Shown here in pieces: positions 669 through 58,735 of a stretch of DNA of 64,000 nucleotides. The stretch spans positions 402,070,001 to 402,134,000 of the forward strand of contig OZ024740.1 of NCBI GenBank assembly GCA_964016885.1. Direction: 5' to 3'. Origin of the DNA: Eledone cirrhosa (lineage: Eukaryota). Every line of letters begins with the position of its first letter. Within the stretch, counting starts at the first letter, position 1. The notes under the pieces were generated by a model. That model made no database searches and was not told the origin of the DNA. It was given only the letters and a program-made list of their open reading frames with translations. The position numbers and the translations under genes are program-made.

Positions 669-961
669 CATATCTAACTATCTATCTATCTATCAATCTA
701 ACTGTCGTCTGTTCTACAGCGTAGATGTAATTCACTTCGCGCAGAAGTTTTGTTCAAATTTATTGCGGAAATTTTGTAAGTTCAATTTTAATGTTGATAC
801 TATTGTGTAGCTTGACCCCCCGTCTGAACTGTCCGGCGGTGGGTCAGCTCATCTTCGCCCCTCCCAGGGGTGAAAAACCTCTTTTTAAAAATTTTATGGC
901 ATAAAAATTTCAATCGTCTGACAGAAATGTTAAACGAAGCTAACGAAAATAGTAGTAGGGG

Positions 962-2877
962 GACAGCGGTAAGAGTTGTAAGCTCGCACGCTTTAGTCCC
1001 CCCCCTTCCTTCCCAACTAACGTCATAGAGAAGGAAAGAAAAAATAAAAGAAAAACAGACGAATGTGCGGAGAAAAATGACGAAAACACGAATCTGGACA
1101 TTGATTCCAACAACAAAAATAAATTTGAAAAATTGCATGACAATATTAATACCACAAACAAAGACACAACAAACACAAAAATAACATTTGAAAACAACAT
1201 CATAACAGAAACCAAAGCAGACGACAAAGTCAACACCAATAATATTTCATTTGCACAAACAACAAAGAATTCTTTGACATATATACCGGAAAATATTTCA
1301 GATGTGGCACAAAGAATTATAAACGCCAAACAATACATAACTCAAGGGGAAAATGGTATTTTATCGGTAAAAATGCCTCAAGAACTCACCAAAGATATTG
1401 AAAGTCGGACGGTCGTTTTCCGCACCATCAACAACATTTCTAAAAAACCTCAACAGCCAACACAAACAGAAATCAAAGCAGAACTTACAGAAGTACTTAA
1501 TGAAACCACTTTCATAAGAAGAGACAGACTGTATGGAAGCCTAGCGATTATTATGAAGAACGAATCGGCGGCAAAAAAATGTGCTTTGTCGCCGATTCGT
1601 TCGACAAATTTTACCTTTTATCTATCTTATATGGGTAAAATAACTCAGCGCATATGGCTGGATGCAATGATGCCAGATGTGGACTACTGCTGGCTCATAG
1701 CTGGCTTCATCGATCCAGCGAATGACAACGTGATTTCCATTGGGAAAACCACAGGCAATGCGTTCAGTGGAACAGGTATAGAACTTGTAGTGCAAATGAA
1801 GCCTGAACGCATCGCCCAAATACTCGACAGAATCCTATTAGAGGGCCACGGGTATATAAACATTAGCGTGGAGGGGAGAAGGCCGTCCTCTCATATCTGT
1901 GCAGCAGAGGGCACCTGAAGGCGGCTTGTCCCCAACTCAACAAGAAGAAAACCCTGTTACCAACACCAGCTCCACCACCACCACAACAGATAAACAAACA
2001 ACAAAACTCAGTCCCACCCAACCCGTCCCTCAGTAAAACTACACCACCACCACAACACAAACAGTCACAACACATTACCCAAAAACAAAACACAGTCCCA
2101 CCCAACCACTCACTCAATAAAACAACACAACCACCGCAGCCACAACACACAACACAGTCTAACATAGTGACATCCATCTCCCCCACAAAGAAAACCAACA
2201 CGGAAACATTACCAGCAAACATACCTCTTCCCTCCAACACTGAAGATAACCCAACGAATTCGAAGGAAGAAACGGAGTCCTTCAGACAGATTAAAAGGAA
2301 AAAAAGAAAACATGTGCAAAACACACAAGGCCAAACAACCCCTACCCAAATGTCAACACAATCCAACAAAACACAAAACACCCCTCCAGCAACAAACATA
2401 ACCAAACCTGCCCCTCCTTTCTTCGAAACACTCACACCATCCGAAAAAAAGACATTACACTATACTTACATCAACAGAAACAATAATAAATTAAATGAAC
2501 TCATAAACAATAATCCTTCGGTACAAAGCGAAGGTGTAAACTTTGTTTCTTCAGAAAACTACCCACATTTAAAATTAATAAAGATCCCAATGAACCTCTA
2601 CCAAAAACTAAAAAAGGATTTTAAGGAGGACGTAGGACCGCCCTCTGTCAAACCCACAAACCGCGTCCTACTAAAAAGCTTTCCCCCTCCCCTTCCCCTC
2701 CCCAACACAACTCCAAACACCCCAACCCCACCACACACTGACGACCCCACACCACCACAAGACACCCCTTCACCCAACACCCCCGACCCATGGAAGTCGT
2801 GCGACCCGAACCCCGGGAAGCAGAAAGGTAGCTCTCCACACTCTCCTTTGGCTTTGCCGCCCACATGGATGTGTTAA
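962..2877 (+). pseudogene. Tx1 ORF1 (gag-like nucleic-acid-binding protein), frameshifted
   Basis: The frame is open from about 962 to 1918. At about 1911 a 1-nt shift joins SHICAAEG to HLKAACP (a CX2CX4HX4C knuckle with the first Cys as Ser). It continues into the Pro/Thr/Gln-rich frame ending at 2877. The true start is uncertain. Confidence 0.8.
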
Positions 2878-5800
2878 GAGTAGGATGTTTGAATGCACGT
2901 GGCCTGGGCTCAACTTGGAAGCAAGCAAAGCTTCTAAATGACCTCAGGTCACGTGGTATAAATGTAATGGTTATCTGTGAGACTCGGATCAGCGTCGTAC
3001 GGCAGCTGGCCCCTACCTTCGATGACTTTGAGGTGCATGCATCTCTCTGTCAACCTGGAGCTGGGGGTGGGGTTGTCGTACTGCTGGAAAAACACCTGGG
3101 TCTCGCCGTACAGATTGTTCACTCGGACCCGGAGGGTCGTTTGTTGGTGCTAGACGTTGGCAGTAGTGAAGGTGCGGCGTTGAGACTGGTCGCCGTCTAC
3201 TGTCCTTTCGGAGCTGATCGGCCCGACGTCTTCCAGCGTTTGGATACTTTTCTGGGAACGTCGCGTTCCCTGCTTCTAGCGGGGGATTGGAATGACATCC
3301 TAGATGCACGTTGGGACTATGCAGGAGCATGTCCTAATAGAGGGGGGTGTAACAGCCTTCAAGGGGTTACTCGACCGTTTTAACTTGGTCGATAGATATC
3401 GACTAGATTTTCCAACTGTGCCAACCTGGACTTGGACGAACCACAGTGGTCAATCTAGATCGTACTTAGATAGATTCTTAGTTAGAAGTAAGGATAGGGA
3501 ATATTAAGCTGTCCAGAAATGCTCACGGTTGGCTATACGGATCACAAATTAGTGACCTGCGTAGTCAATCTCGAGAAAACACATAAACGGGGTCTCGGTT
3601 ACTGGAAACTTAATTTGTCTTTACCGGCAAAAGAGACTTACAGAAACCGGATTAGCAGATTAGTTAAGGAGAGGTTGACGGGTGCAATCGTCAACAACCG
3701 ATGGTGGGCATCTCTCAAAAGAGAGATTATAACAGAATCAATAAGTTATAGCAAGATGTTAGTTGCCGATAGGAATAGAAACGAGAAAGAATTAACAGGT
3801 AAACTAGAAGAGGCAATCAAGGGCGAAGATGTGGCCAGAGTGCTGGCATCGAGGACGGTCTTGAACTAGTTTTTCGATGCAAAGCACGAAGGCTGCGTCA
3901 TTCGAAGTAAAATACGTGCTCTAGGTAATGAGGGGGCCAAAGCCGTTGGCTGGGCCCGCGTGACAGAAGCTAAGAGTGGAAATCGATCCACCATCCGGTC
4001 TTTGCAAGACGAGGATGGACGGGTGATCCGGGAGCCTAAGCAGATGTGCGAGGCCTTTCAAAGGCACTTTGCCCGATTATTCGGGGGAGGCGAGGGTCCG
4101 GGCGGGGACGTGGATTTCGGTCCATACCTCGACGGCCTGCCGCGTCTCTCGAGCGAAGAGGCAGAGTCCTGCGAGGGACCAATCTCGGTTGATGAGATCG
4201 GGGATGCGGTGAGCCAATGCAGCAGACGCAAATCTCCAGGTCTCGATGGTATACCTTACGAACTTTATTTAGCAATGCCGGTCTTCTTCTCCGAAGCGGT
4301 CTACTGCAATTGGCAGCAGAACGGGAGAATTCCTTGTTCTGTAGCCAAGGGCGTAGTCTCGATGGTGAGGAAGGACGAGAACAAGGGGATAGTATAAATA
4401 ATTTTCGGCCCATAACCCTGCTAAACACAGAGTTAAAGATTTTGGCCAAGGTGTTAGCAAAGAGGTTGGCGCTTGTGGGTGGCCTGGTGGGAGATGCGCA
4501 GACATGTGCTATCCCATCCAGGTCCATTCACGATAACCTCCACCTCATGCGATACATCATAGAGAGGGTTGGCAACAAACCCGGCTCCGGTGGGGCCCTG
4601 ATCAACTTGGATCAGTCTAAGGCCTTCGATAGGGTCGACCATGTTTACCTGGATGCGGTGCTAGCGGCGGCTGGGTTCGGTCCTGTTTTCAGAGGCTGGA
4701 TCACTGCCTTACATAGCAACCACATCTGTTCTAGGATCAAGGTGAACGGCTACCTTTCGAAGCCGTTCAAAATCACACGATCCATTCGACAGGGGCCCCC
4801 ACTCTTCTGTACGTATTGACTCTCGAGCCTTTACTGAGGAAGTTGGAGTTGTTGCAGGGTATCCCCCTGGAATCAGGATTGAGCAAAGCGATGTCGGCCT
4901 ACGCCGATGACGTAACAGTAATGGTATCGACCGACTCGGAGATCGAGGCGATCGGTACCTTACTGGAGGATTACGAAAGGTTGTCAGGAGCGAAAATGAA
5001 CCGGGAAAAATCCATCGGGCTGCAACTCGGAACGTGGAGAGGCAGTCCGATGCCTCCCGACGGTGTCGTCGACACTGGACGGAGGGCCCGGTGAAGTTGC
5101 TTGGGGTCTGGTTTGGACCAGACCTCCAGGTGGAAAAGAACTGGGACGAGGTTACGAACAAGGTGTTTGCACTAACCCAGAAATGGGCCAAGTGTAAGCT
5201 GTCCCTAAAAGGCCGGGCGGAGGTGGCGAACATTTACGTAGCGTCCGTCATTTACTACCGCCTGACTGTCGTGCCTTGCCCTAAGGAAACACTCACCACC
5301 ATGGAACGCATGCTTTTCCAATTTCTTTGGAAGAAGCGCCCTCCTATGGTGAGAAGATCCATCTGCTGCCAACAACCTTCGAAAGGAGGGCTGGGGATGC
5401 CGTGGTTGATGATGCGTAGGCACGCATTAAGGCTACGGCACCTACAGGTATTCCTCACTGGTCAACCGGTGTGGGCTCCGTTCGTGAAACGAGCCTTTCC
5501 GAGACTCGTCTCGCTCACCGAGCTGCAGTCCTGGGTCAAGCAAAGATCCGGAAAACTGGGAGACTGGCACACTGAGTGTGCCCAGGCGCTCAGGGCTCTC
5601 TGGCAAGCGGGCCAGGCCATCGGTGGAGAATCCACCTCATCATTCTATAGAAGGCTGGTGGCTAGCAGGGGCGATGACACCCTTGGAGAGTCGCTGGACA
5701 TGGAAGAGGACGAACTGGCCAGCCTGTTCGGTAGGACTTTCGGCCCGGGACCAATGGACAACACCAGAAGTCACTAGCCTGGCAGTGCTACCGGGGGGCT

Positions 5801-12877: not shown

Positions 12878-12931
12878 CTGCCTGATGAGGTCATAGCCAT
12901 TCAATGGCTATCATCGAAATATATATAGCAG
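12878..12931 (+). ncRNA. Minimal type-I hammerhead ribozyme in a TA-flanked element (about 12810-12976)
   Basis: ctgc-CTGATGA-ggtcATAGCCATtcaATGGCTATcatc-GAAA-tatata-TA^gcag. Stems I, II and III are all present. Confidence 0.85.
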
Positions 12932-19701: not shown

Positions 19702-20073
<372 letters not shown>

Positions 20074-39794: not shown

Positions 39795-41182
39795 GCGGCG
39801 ATGAATTTCAGCAATGTCCAGTAGTGCTAAGTTTAATATTCTGAACACAGATTTGGTACGAGTGATGAAGAATGTGTCCCGCATGTGCGACCCAACAGAA
39901 ATGGAAAGACACATCCAACACTTCATCAACCGCATGCAGTTCTCTGGCTACAACCAAAGAGACAGAGTCAGAGTATACGAAGGAGCCATGGAAAAGTATG
40001 AGACCCTCATAGAACTGGACATGAAAGGAATTTGCCCATTATACAGGAGCAAATCATGGAATAGCTTAGATAGGGCTAGACATAAGATAGGGAAAGCCAC
40101 CTCATGGTACGACAACCAGAGATACCAGAGTGTCATGTTTGTGGACGCCACCCCTGGAGGGAAATTAGCTAACCAGTGTAGAAAGGCCCTGAGAAAGACC
40201 CACTTAAAAATAAAGGTGGTAGAAAAGCCAGGAACCACCATAAAATCCCTGATCAGCAAAACCTACCCTTTTAAGAAAACCCACTGTACCAATAGGAAAT
40301 GTATCATATGTAAGGTGAACCCCCGGATAAACTGTAAAACTAGAAACGTAGTCTATAGCATAAGATGTACAGAGGGTACTTTCAGAAACATGACAACAAC
40401 ATACATAGGTGAGACAGCTCGTAGCATAGGTGAAAGGATAGACCAACACTGGGGGGAACTAAAAGGACGAAAAAAACGGGTTAGTACTATACGAATATGC
40501 TAGACAACAACATGACGGTAACATAGACAACATAGAAATTAGAATAATATCTAAACATAGAAATGACCCAGCAGATAGGCAAATCAGAGAGGCCAGTGAA
40601 ATAGAAATTAGAAGACCAAAGCTAAACAGAAAGAATGAATGGAATAACAACAACACCCAAACAAACAACACTGACCTAAGAGAAGTATAAATAAGTAAAT
40701 AAAATAAGATAAATAAATAAATAAATAAATACATACACAAGCACAATAACAACAAGCACATAAACACACACTAGTCACCCATCACACAGCAAACATAACA
40801 CTATACACACACGCAAACGCATGCACAAAGAAGACAAAATAAAATAAACAAACAAGCAAATAAATAAATAAATATATAGACAGACTGAATAAAAATGGCG
40901 TAGACATACAACACAACAGGAGGAAAATATAACACCACTGACGATGTTGCAGATGTGCAACGAAAGATTTATGATAAACTATATATATGTGTTTGTGTCT
41001 ATATTGTATCTGTATTATTTTTGACCGTCGGTCAGTCAATGGCAACATTGAGGACCGAGTAAGTTAGATCACCGATATAAAAGACACAGAAGCGAGAAGC
41101 GAAAACCAACCAAACAGTGAATGTGTTCTGTTATTAATTCTGGCAATATTACACAAATATGACCCTCCCCAAGTATAACAAT
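39795..41182 (+). mobile_element. 5'-truncated Penelope-like element (RT thumb/linker, GIY-YIG endonuclease, pLTR)
   Basis: ORF 39814-40503 has SGY, FVDATPGG.LA, KVVEKPG, C..C..C, NVVYSIRC..YIGETARS..ER..QH. A frameshift follows into RQIREA..I...LNRKNEW. Inserted in (TA)n. Confidence 0.92.
40934..40975 (+). ncRNA. Minimal hammerhead ribozyme in the Penelope pLTR
   Basis: CTGACGA-tGTTGCAgatgTGCAAC-GAAA-gatt-TA. Confidence 0.7.
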
Positions 41183-41191
41183 ATATATATA

Positions 41192-41384
41192 TAGGAACCA
41201 GTAAGACCCCGACGGCTGAGCTCAAGCCGTTTCGACGGCTAATTCTAGATTTAGAATTAGCCGTCGAAACGGCTTGAGCTCAGCCGTCGGGGTCTTACTG
41301 GTTCCTATTACCCAGTCTACTACCCCAAGTATTGAGTACTTTGGTGCGTTATGGTCCACCTGGTTCCTTACCACATTTCCTTCG

Positions 41385-41386
<2 letters not shown>
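41192..41386 (+). mobile_element. Fold-back half-hammerhead element, 'GCCGTCGAAACGGC' family
   Basis: Perfect inverted arms 41192-41307 around a 4-nt loop, plus an 80-bp tail. Sisters at 50669-50829 and 51319-51518. Confidence 0.88.
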
Positions 41387-41427
<41 letters not shown>

Positions 41428-47694: not shown

Positions 47695-48121
47695 GTTAAA
47701 AGAATAGAGGTGTAACACACAAGTTATTATATATTGGTAAACGGAATAGAAAATGCTGACAAATTATTCACAGTTGAAAAATGGTTTAATTAGGAATAAA
47801 AGAGTATTAGTGATTGTATGGGTTAGTATTCAGTTGTGGTTTTAAGTTTTTACCGGTTGCGCATTTCTAAATGCTTTTCAAAAATAATTTTGAGATAGAG
47901 TGTCCGTGCTGTTTGCTCTGATCTGCAAACAGCACGGACACTCTATCTCAAAATTATTTTTGAAAAGCATTTAGAAATGCGCAACCGGTAAAAACTTAAA
48001 AACTTAAAACCACAACTGAATACTAACCCATACAACCACTAATACTCTTTTATTCCTAATTAAACCAGTTTTCAACTGTGAACAATTTGTCAGCATTTTC
48101 TATTCCGTTTACCAATATATA
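47695..48121. mobile_element. Long fold-back element (about 190-bp arms, 8-nt loop)
   Basis: Arms 47729-47916 and 47925-48121. Both carry GCGCAACCGGTA, a variant of GCGAAACCGGTA in the 14930/31207 family. Confidence 0.88.
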
Positions 48122-50385: not shown

Positions 50386-50668
50386 AAGAATTTGAAATAA
50401 GATAGATTGTGGGGACGGGCGGGTTGGAATTGGAAAAAATGTTTTTATATATTGTGAAAGAGTGAAGAATAACATGGTCAGCTGTACAAAGAGGGTTTTA
50501 TTTACAGTATTAACAATTGCTTCATAGATCAGGTAAGTCTAAAGGCTGCTGATCACTCGAAATTGCCTCATTCGTTAAAACTATCCATAGTACCTCTAAC
50601 TGGATTACCTAAATCGATAACTTGTTATCCCAATACATATATATATATATGTATATATATAGAGAGAG

Positions 50669-50829
50669 AGGAAAATGTTTAACCCCGACGGCAGAGCTCA
50701 AGCCGTCGAAACGGCCTGAGCTCTGCCATCGTGGTTAAACATTTTCCTAGTACCCACTCTACTATCCTAAGTATTGAATACTCTAGTGCGTTATGGTCCA
50801 TCTGGTTCCTTACCACTCCTTCTTCGTTA
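50669..50829 (+). mobile_element. Fold-back half-hammerhead element, 'GCCGTCGAAACGGC' family (centre collapsed)
   Basis: GGAAAATGTTTAACC...GGTTAAACATTTTCC plus the family tail. Confidence 0.85.
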
Positions 50830-50855: not shown

Positions 50856-51299
50856 TATTAAATTCAAAGGGGTATATATATATATATCATTAGACATAGT
50901 CCAGATACATATATATGTTTGGCAACCTTTCACGGTGTGGATCAATGAAGAATTAATTAAGCAAATAATTATTGATCAGAGCTATATATAAAAATGCAAA
51001 TCCGAAGAACCATTAGATAAAATGTATACAGTATTTCCTCTCCCAATCAATATAAATTAACCAGATAAAAAAATCATTTAAACGAGGTTATAAGTTTAAA
51101 ATGGACTTATGAAGAAATAATAGACAAATGCGTACATCATGGAGAATAATCTGTATCATTTGTCTATTATTTCTTCATAAGTCCATTTTAAAGTTATAAC
51201 CTCGTTTAAATGATTTTTATGTGGTTAATTTATACTGATTGGGAGAGGAAATACTGTATATATTTTATCTAATGGTTCTTCGGACTTGCAATTTTATAT
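50856..51299. mobile_element. Fold-back derivative of the 660-700-bp hammerhead family
   Basis: Inverted arms at about 50984-51138 and 51157-51299. The sequence matches 57816-57980 and 58585-58735. Confidence 0.82.
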
Positions 51300-51318
51300 T
51301 TTTGTATATATATATATA

Positions 51319-51518
51319 TAGGAAAATGTATGACCCCGATGGTAGAGCTCAAGCCGTTTCGACGGCTATTTCTGAACTTTATCCAGAAATAGCCGTCGAA
51401 ACGGCTTGAGCTCTGCCGTCGGGGTCATACATTTTCCTATTATCCACTCTACTACCATAAGTAATGTGTACTCTGGTGCGTTATGGTCCATCTGGTTCCT
51501 TACCACAACCCCTTCGTT
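51319..51518 (+). mobile_element. Fold-back half-hammerhead element, 'GCCGTCGAAACGGC' family
   Basis: Arms 51319-51439 plus tail, with (TA)n on both sides. Confidence 0.88.
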
Positions 51519-54171: not shown

Positions 54172-54434
54172 CACCTTGACCTTGACCGACCAGTCTCTCG
54201 GGCGCCAATCAGCGCCGCTGGTCACAGCACGTCGTGCTGTTTTAGCCGTAAGATAACGCCATCCCACTGGCTGGGTGGACAGGCCGGTACTCATTTCTAC
54301 AGCTGAGTAAATCTGGAGCAACGTGAAATAAAGTGTCTTGCTCAAGGAAACAACACATCACCCAGTCCGAGAATTGAACTCACAACCTTTCGATTGCAAG
54401 CCCAATGCTTTAACCACTAAGCCATGCGCCTTCA
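54170..54434 (-). mobile_element. tRNA-derived SINE, family B, full length
   Basis: The minus strand begins GGCGCATGGCTTAGTGGTTAAAGC..GAGTTCAATTCTC, followed by the family core. Confidence 0.88.
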
Positions 54435-54972: not shown

Positions 54973-55123
54973 GGCTCGATAAGGATAAATATATATCAGA
55001 TATATGAGAAAGGTAGAGCAAATATTTATTAAAATAACAGATTAAAGTTTAAGCAAAGAATCGCTGCTTTCACCCTTAAAGCAGCGATTCTTTGCTTAAA
55101 CTTTAGTCTGTTATTTTAATAAA

Positions 55124-57780: not shown

Positions 57781-57811
<31 letters not shown>

Positions 57812-57815
57812 ATAC

Positions 57816-58735
57816 ATTCAAAGGTATATATATATAATTAGACATAGTCACAGATACATATATGAGTTTGGCTACCTTTCACGGTGTGTCTCAATGAAGA
57901 ATTAATTAAGCAAATAATCATTAATCAGAGCTATATATAAAATTGCAAGTTTGAAGATCTATTAGATAAAATATATACTGAGAGGAAATACTGTATATAT
58001 TATATCTAATAGTTCTTCAAACTTGCAATTTTATATATAGCTCTGATTAATGATTATTTGCTTGATTAATTCTTCATTCAGCCACACCGTGAAAGGTAGC
58101 CAAACTCATATATGTATCTGTGACTATGTCTAATTATATATATACCCCTTTGAATTTAATGTATACTCCCGTAAGGTTGAGTAAAACTTTAGGCAGTATC
58201 CGGCTGCGCTTTCTAGCAACCAGCCTACTCGCCGACAGGCATCAATTACAATTCTTCTGCCTTGACCGCTGTCCACGTGATGGTTCTTAGCCACTTTGAA
58301 ATCATTTCTGGCGGGGATCATGGTAGAAAACTTAGTCCAGACTGGGGTGTCACCTGATGAGTTCCAAGCCTCATGGATAAATCCAAGATCGGGTATATCC
58401 AAAACATGAAACAAAACCAACGGTGGTCTGGACTAGAGAAATTTTGGTAAAGTTTATGTGCATTTTTTCTTCAAACTTCTAATTTGTACCTAACTCCGTG
58501 TAGTTAATTATTTGTCTAGTCGATTTCTACAGGCTAAAAAAATAACTGGATAAATTTGATATGGTAATACATCGCAGATGATAGTCTGTATCATTTGTCT
58601 ATTATTTCTCCATAGTTACATTTTAAACTTATAGCCTCGTTTAAATGATTTTTCATGTGGTTGATTTATAGGGACAAGGAGAGGAAATACTGTATATATT
58701 TTATCAAATAGTTCTTCAAACTTGCAATTTTATAT
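57816..58735 (+). mobile_element. Non-coding hammerhead element, 699-bp period, with inverted 5' piece
   Basis: AGAGGAAATACTGTATATA at 57981 and 58680. Segment 57816-57978 is inverted against about 57994-58155. A degenerate HHR starts with CTGATGA at about 58354. Homologous to 28810-29690. Confidence 0.8.

Follow-up and report, generated by a model that had tools for sequence, protein, structure and literature searches.

Three palindromic elements in the window, the whole 64,000-nucleotide stretch of Eledone cirrhosa DNA analysed here, are on the evidence of their sequences head-to-head paired, 5′-truncated stubs from a Hydra-clade Penelope-like retrotransposon. We give a probability of roughly two in three to the reading that such stubs, inserted in (TA)n, are joined at what was probably the capped 5′ end of the element RNA. 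The three elements, each lying between (TA)n runs and mutually 83–87% alike, are the sole copies in the window (Table 1). The first-pass annotation had read the right arm as the 3′ half of a type I hammerhead, and the arm does carry the stem II 3′ strand, GAAA, stem III, GUC and the stem I 3′ strand, with an inverted arm standing in the short palindromic copies (minis) where the 5′ core strand should be. The one-sided tail ending at (TA)n is likewise present (78 nt in element 1, with tails also in both sisters), and the reported match of arms within a copy is borne out, both arms of each of the three elements carrying that copy's subfamily variant; the proposed Penelope-type origin with (TA)n priming is supported. 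The geometry thought to be common to the three sisters does not extend to element 2, in which a stem II mirror is lacking and the arms meet in a 6-nt AGCCGT overlap.

Positions are given below as d, counted in bases upstream from the internal TA boundary, where TTCCTA ends (window 41307 for element 1). On this scale the parent has its predicted ribozyme cut between d20 and d19, GAAA at d42–39, the 3′ strand of the proximal stem II at d43–53, and the stem II 5′ strand with the core at about d85–103.

Table 1. Window positions of the three palindromic elements and their parts
Feature	Window position	Strand	Details
Element 1, left flank, (TA)n target	41181..41193	.	
Element 1, whole	41192-41385		palindrome 41192-41307; tail on one side only, 41308-41385 (78 nt); (TA)n on both flanks
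Element 1, tailless arm (inverted element 3′ end)	41192..41249	-	d1 (TA boundary) to about d58-60; from parent coordinates
Element 1, arm junction	41250..41251	.	at the candidate RNA start region (d56-60)
Element 1, tail-bearing arm (type I hammerhead 3′ half)	41252..41307	+	assigned through base pairing to 5′ strands of the parent; stem II 3′ strand to 41265; GAAA 41266-41269; stem III 41269-41287; C17 at 41288 (predicted cut 3′ of C17); stem I 3′ strand 41289-41305
Element 1, tail	41308..41385	+	in tandem copies the same sequence lies between pLTR and ORF 5′ leader
Element 1, right flank, (TA)n target	41386..41420	.	
Element 2, palindrome	50668..50749	.	arms to d39 (tailless) and d49 (tail arm); overlap AGCCGT 50701-50706; without stem II mirror
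Element 2, tail	50750..50827	+	
Element 3, palindrome	51319..51439	.	tailless arm ends at d60 (51378) and tail arm begins at d58 (51382), with a 3-nt insert (51379-51381) between them
Element 3, tail	51440..51517	+	followed by (TA)n

The parent element and its hammerhead

The family is abundant in the 3.0-Gb assembly, in which the exact tail pattern has at least 38,951 copies and the hammerhead anchor 63,548 exact matches, the parent's stem II 5′ strand being in place at only 6,152 of these anchored arms. Exact palindromes, taken as two facing anchors 6–36 nt apart, number 12,803 assembly-wide against 0 for a reversed control pattern, and reversed control patterns for the assembly-wide counts gave 0–1 matches; every sample consists of exact-motif matches and is biased to young copies. 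Being short, abundant, palindromic and TA-targeted, the minis resemble DNA-transposon MITEs with fixed inverted termini, but their one-sided tail, variable axis and continuity with an RT-encoding parent make such an origin barely credible, in agreement with the first-pass annotation; fixed terminal inverted repeats at both ends and a uniform length were not found. Several minis also form a head-to-tail array with (TA)n between them at L010/L011 (G000:C18:18042507-18042819).

Parent copies (L071, L250–L269) contain an ORF with RWR, DKT, RDDG, CxCX5C and YIG motifs. Long copies consist of this single ORF and a 3′ UTR of ~1.3 kb ending in the arm, giving an element of about 3.5 kb, and they occur as partial tandems, with the tail running into the ORF leader, and as truncated copies in inverted orientation. 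They show the hallmarks of EN+ Penelope-like elements, namely pLTRs formed through partial tandems, an inverted 5′-truncated copy and an optional tail, together with the RDDG-type core in a single ORF of a telomerase-related RT. The predicted ORF structure (pLDDT 85.9) had telomerase RTs as its best Foldseek matches (E 2.6e-8), and 1,373 relatives scored at E <= 1e-20; neither Pfam, searched with ORF fragments and five homologues, nor PDB sequences, searched by profile, yielded anything informative. Hydra-clade features could be recognized by eye (RWK-like, DKT, a CxCX5C linker, CxxC and CxH, with the (TA)n target), and the protein resembles Hydra-1_Obim by the same inspection. A VIY...YIG motif, also noted by eye, follows the CxCX5C linker and points to a putative C-terminal GIY-YIG endonuclease; no GIY-YIG profile or fold match was obtained, the model being incomplete in that domain.

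By motif and pairing, the 3′ end of the parent is a candidate type I hammerhead with a long stem II insertion. The parent that the first-pass annotation expected, one with the missing hammerhead half, does exist, although not with the expected core: 90 of 105 long arms have UUGANAA, 8 have CUGAGAA, 4 have CUGAGGA (the only ones of CUGANGA type) and 3 have others. This is a U3-A8 core with all four bases at position 7, accompanied by G10.1-C11.1, GAAA and GUC, and the hammerhead helices are 97% paired. A covariation test of the helices in 14 copies gave none, an Rfam search of the parent's end returned no hammerhead, and minimum-energy folding recovered one in only three of five parent sequences. 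The 150 of 217 Rfam matches listed for the window contained no hammerhead and were mostly microRNA models on simple repeats. The 63 matches with CUGANGA upstream, considered as parents, were mostly chance matches or palindromes, with about 9 true parent-type copies carrying the rare core. The minis are mostly dispersed and inverted and carry half of the motif, an inverted arm replacing the 5′ core strand of a hammerhead; they differ in this from non-LTR retrozymes, defined as tandem units each with a complete type I hammerhead (bioRxiv 10.64898/2026.07.22.740005, as far as its accessible text defines them).

The palindrome axis had been placed at the stem II loop. In the parent, the 5′ strand of stem II differs from the mirrored strand and lies ~40 nt farther upstream, and the axis stops short of the loop apex; the long "stem II" of the palindrome is the automatic product of a mirror copy rather than the parent's helix. 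The stem III loop (window 41271-41284) contains the self-complementary UGAGCUCA, through which two RNAs could pair as in dimeric Penelope-like hammerheads.

Arm ends and the candidate start site

Arm ends were scored in 98 copies from the first 100 tail matches along contig C1, covering its first 18 Mb; (TA)n follows the tail in 97 of them. Tail arms end within the tail in 6 copies, at d0–19 in 13, d20–42 in 10, d43–51 in 3, d52–66 in 54 and d67–90 in 5, and are longer in 7, none of these remaining 7 ending at d91–169. The d52–66 interval takes 54 of the 66 tail arms still extending, or 0.107 per nt compared with 0.002–0.008 before it. The tailless arms agree, 59 of 73 parsed ending at d52–66, the parser having called no second arm in 25 of the 98 copies, about 8 of which have one by eye. 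Because the two kinds of arm begin about 80 nt apart on the RNA and yet end at the same place, the limit is one of position and not of length. The hot spot lies within the stem II insertion, toward its 3′ side, and does not reach the loop apex of the parent.

A TATA-like box (TATTTAAA-type) has its first T 29–31 nt upstream of A(d60), within TC/TT-A-GTC, in 105 of 105 long arms, which were chosen by a pattern that required both the box and TC/TT-A-GTC. The layout was read with the TATA-to-start spacing rule and the Inr consensus. Among TA-joined arms, the base before A(d60) is G in 60, T, the parent base, in 25, A in 9 and C in 6 (hand count of the first 100 of 304), or G in 57 of 97 once one four-fold tandem is merged. 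At a control A(d49), 11 nt downstream, the preceding base is G in 1, A in 6, C in 0 and T in 93 (hand count of the first 100 of 123), and G against A plus C differs between the two sites (Fisher p = 0.0009). The first 20 G loci belong to several subfamilies, 15 being tailless and 5 tailed, and for 19 of them the 95 compressed bases displayed contain only one arm; L004 is a palindrome with the extra base on both arms, and L283 repeats a G-led 5′ end. A G left over from a deleted second arm was considered and rejected: it would leave C about as often, both being common at junctions, whereas C is ten times rarer. An extra G is the cap signature at full-length L1 junctions in the accessible text of PMC11702581. 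The extra G at d60 is likely such a signature, and the palindrome centre likely marks the capped 5′ end of the element RNA, inside the hammerhead.

Part of the distribution requires more than a start at d60. Most tail arms end at d54–59, for which trimming would be needed under this model, and 13 of 98 end at d61–78, upstream of the proposed start, for which upstream starts or chance matches would be needed. It might instead be supposed that nucleases cut or trim the template near d60, in the AU-rich stem II insertion, and that a G is added without a cap at run-off. This would account for the d54–66 spread and the correlated arms, and the region is a predicted internal loop; however, the G occurs mainly in front of a single Inr-like A located at TATA spacing, the presumably uncapped d19 end almost lacks it, and we regard this explanation as unlikely.

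The d19 ends form a minor class. Among 81 AT-joined tail arms ending at d16–22, 42 end exactly at d19 (hand count, of which up to 6 may be CpG-decayed d21 ends, the pattern covering some subfamilies only); the remainder end at d18 (5), d17 (6), d20–21 (11) and d22 or more (13), with 2 shorter and 2 unclear. As d19 is the first base past the predicted ribozyme cut, this class may represent ribozyme cleavage, and a fifth G is present in only 1–2 of the d19 ends, the lack of an extra G being expected for a 5′-OH end. Alternatively, the peak could reflect a pause at the base of stem III.

Junctions between the arms

In 49 copies with both arms ending at d50–80, the arms overlap by 0–1 nt in 32 and by 2–4 nt in 6, and 11 have inserts; in about 15 further copies the tail arm falls far short while the tailless arm reaches d56–65, which later deletions could also cause. 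In 39 of 48 copies both arms carry one and the same variant, where chance would give 11.7; the pair therefore usually derives from one RNA or one source. Mean arm identity is higher within copies (0.913) than between them (0.847; n = 44 of 49, with a few arms mis-cut by the parser). The view of the first-pass annotation that the arms are made afresh with every insertion is supported. L192 is a clear chimera with arms from two subfamilies.

The first-pass annotation had proposed that a cDNA primed at the tail is arrested by the stem II structure and then serves as its own template, folding back and extending to the TA boundary. Arm ends do cluster just past the proximal stem II helix, variant sharing between arms is predicted equally well, and arm lengths correlate, short with short and long with long; moreover, self-priming has been proposed for Penelope palindromes (PMC3846280, accessible text) and snap-back after full-length cDNA is described for R2 (PMC11371274, accessible text). 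On the other hand, none of the 49 junctions fits a base-paired fold-back from the longer tail arm (stem >= 2 bp, loop >= 3 nt), and the tail arm is shorter than the tailless arm in 25 copies, longer in 18 and equal in 6. Tailless stubs that stand alone and carry the extra G (15 of the 20 loci examined) and the chimeric pair L192 also argue against it, a stall leaves unexplained a G that is specific to d60, at an Inr-like A and probably cap-derived, and in 23 of 30 ORF-bearing copies the sequence continues through the same structure in the upstream pLTR. Fold-back may produce a share of the copies, but as the general origin of the palindromes it has a low probability, only slightly above that of nuclease trimming.

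The axes that had been tied to stem II are not random, arm ends clustering at d52–66, nor are they fixed, 35 different junction strings occurring in 51 loci and one string recurring in 9 of them. This bears on whether the minis are a non-autonomous family copied from earlier minis, with the junction inherited or ratcheting inward. The very high copy number and the recurrent junction would suit such copying; yet the junction strings are diverse, the recurrent one is found in several subfamilies and in both orientations to the tail, and the main mini subfamilies each match long-arm copies, which renders it improbable. Still less probable is that the insertions began as long inverted repeats whose centres were deleted afterwards until a stable arm length was reached. 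Palindromes are known to undergo central revision, and microhomology deletions occur in some copies (element 2), as do direct-repeat deletions, but palindromes with 170–200-nt arms persist in the window, and solo stubs end at the same place with the added G.

Two separately primed cDNAs, which we prefer as the source of the minis, do not by themselves cover the long copies. Long arms pair with long ones, 17 of the first 30 lying in head-to-head groups (hand count) and all 4 assessable long tail arms having a long partner. In the 30 best-matching copies with an ORF 5′ end (of 783 candidates, some loci duplicated), 23 run past d60 into longer tandems, L221 alone starts at d59, L245 at about d39 and L222 at d19–20, and four start in or after the tail. 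The expectation that all ORF-bearing copies begin at d60 failed on the 23 that continue. The long copies seem to need a second template pool, and multimeric or circular RNA, as proposed for Penelope-like elements (PMC4209133, accessible text), would account for them.

L250 ends at d59 twice within one insertion, and the first 5–11 nt of an arm are reiterated at the d59–60 end in G000:C1:64990523-64990555 and in L283, resembling repeated re-priming at the RNA 5′ end. Two separate insertions, in L250 (1425-1487) and L263 (1414-1482), leave the ORF at one shared position, about 850 nt from the start of the element, and resume in the pLTR at each copy's own 5′-end position (d59 and d39–41, respectively); this suggests that the RNA had a defined 3′ end at the shared ORF position and that the template was switched.

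Proposed mechanism and related elements

In the mechanism that we propose, transcription from a pLTR promoter would begin at A(d60), within the stem II insertion, and the resulting capped RNA would have only the ribozyme 3′ half at its start, unable to cut itself there unaided. The element protein would nick both strands of the symmetric (TA)n target, and reverse transcription would start internally at two sites near the RNA 5′ end, the tail end and the TA boundary. The cDNAs, about 140 or 60 nt long, would reach the end of the RNA and run off it, in many cases with the cap copied, and their ends would be joined with 0–2 nt of overlap or a short insert after the loss of a few bases; a single cDNA would give a solo stub, and the minor class with ends at d19 would come from RNAs that a complete ribozyme had cut. 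Two-strand cleavage with extension, two internal RT starts and a predicted dimer are reported in the accessible text of PMC11167929. The reading can be carried further, with a confidence that falls a little short of even: with the promoter inside the hammerhead, capped RNA would hold an uncut half ribozyme and read-through RNA a whole, cutting one, a two-subunit enzyme would prime both (TA)n strands and run off both ends, and the insertions, tens of thousands in number, would form a fossil map of start and cut. On this extended reading Penelope inverted repeats in general could arise in this way, and the choice of start site would act as a switch for the ribozyme.

As described in the accessible parts of the literature, the Hydra clade (Craig et al. 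2021, PMC8557442), including Hydra-1_Obim, shares with this family a single ORF, RW(K/R), DKT, the CxCX5C linker, CxxC, CxH, a C-terminal endonuclease region that is putative here, a 3′ hammerhead and the (TA)n target. The family here differs in its length of about 3.5 kb, 1.3-kb 3′ UTR, U3-A8 core, stem II insertion of roughly 40 nt and closed 5-bp stem III, whereas the Hydra hammerheads in File S2 of that paper all have CUGANGA and a short stem II, and the anchor motif is absent from the supplement text. EN+ Penelope elements have head-to-head inverted 5′-truncated copies, a junction palindrome and a tail on one arm (Arkhipova et al. 2013, PMC3846280, accessible text); here, in contrast, the two-stub form without an ORF predominates, the tail measures about 78 nt against 30–40 there, the junction lies at one site, and the junctions favour two cDNAs where that paper favours self-priming. 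Inverted pLTRs with a tail were already published there. The PAc Poseidon element in vitro (Frangieh et al. 2024, PMC11167929) resembles our scheme in having two internal RT starts that bracket the tail, both target strands cut and extended, and an AT-rich target, while inverted repeats and run-off at the RNA start are not addressed in its accessible text. U3-A8 covariation occurs in the hammerheads of Schistosoma Cercyon pLTRs, together with motif pairs on opposite strands 100–700 bp apart (Cervera and de la Pena 2014, PMC4209133, accessible text); those motifs are minimal and without stem III, whereas here the proposed RNA start splits the motif. The D. virilis Penelope pLTR contains both start site and promoter, the latter TATA-less and internal (Schostak et al. 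2008, PMC2377424, accessible text), unlike the TATA-like box suggested here. No report tying Penelope palindrome axes to a capped start, or placing a start site inside a hammerhead, was found in the literature covered, with subscription journals and Repbase/Dfam entries outside its scope.

The origin of Penelope-like inverted repeats and tails and the role of the hammerheads are stated as open questions in the accessible text of PMC8557442 and PMC11167929. At single-base resolution, the present family predicts that capped RNA starts at one particular A within stem II, that the ribozyme cuts 41 nt farther downstream, and that two independently primed cDNAs become linked in head-to-head orientation. 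The family also accounts for abundant short hairpin repeats that could otherwise be mistaken for MITEs or microRNA-like hairpins.

Other repeats share the window. Further long palindromes stand beside (TA)n at 19702-20043, 47728-48121, 50870-51318, 57806-58165 and 55044-55104; those at 50870 and 57806 belong to a single family with unlike arm lengths, and these other palindromes are possibly inverted pairs from other Penelope-like families. Near-complete or complete minimal hammerhead motifs (CUGANGA...GAAA) at 12882, 31082 (-), 36344, 50381 (-) and 63184 represent other families, probably Penelope. A 232-aa fragment like the C-terminal RT region of another Penelope-type element lies at 39805-40500 (+) and also beside L071, fragments of a non-LTR retrotransposon with gag-like and RT-like ORFs occupy 959-5774 (+), and a tRNA-like match at 54363-54426 (-; Rfam 32 bits) is probably a SINE head.
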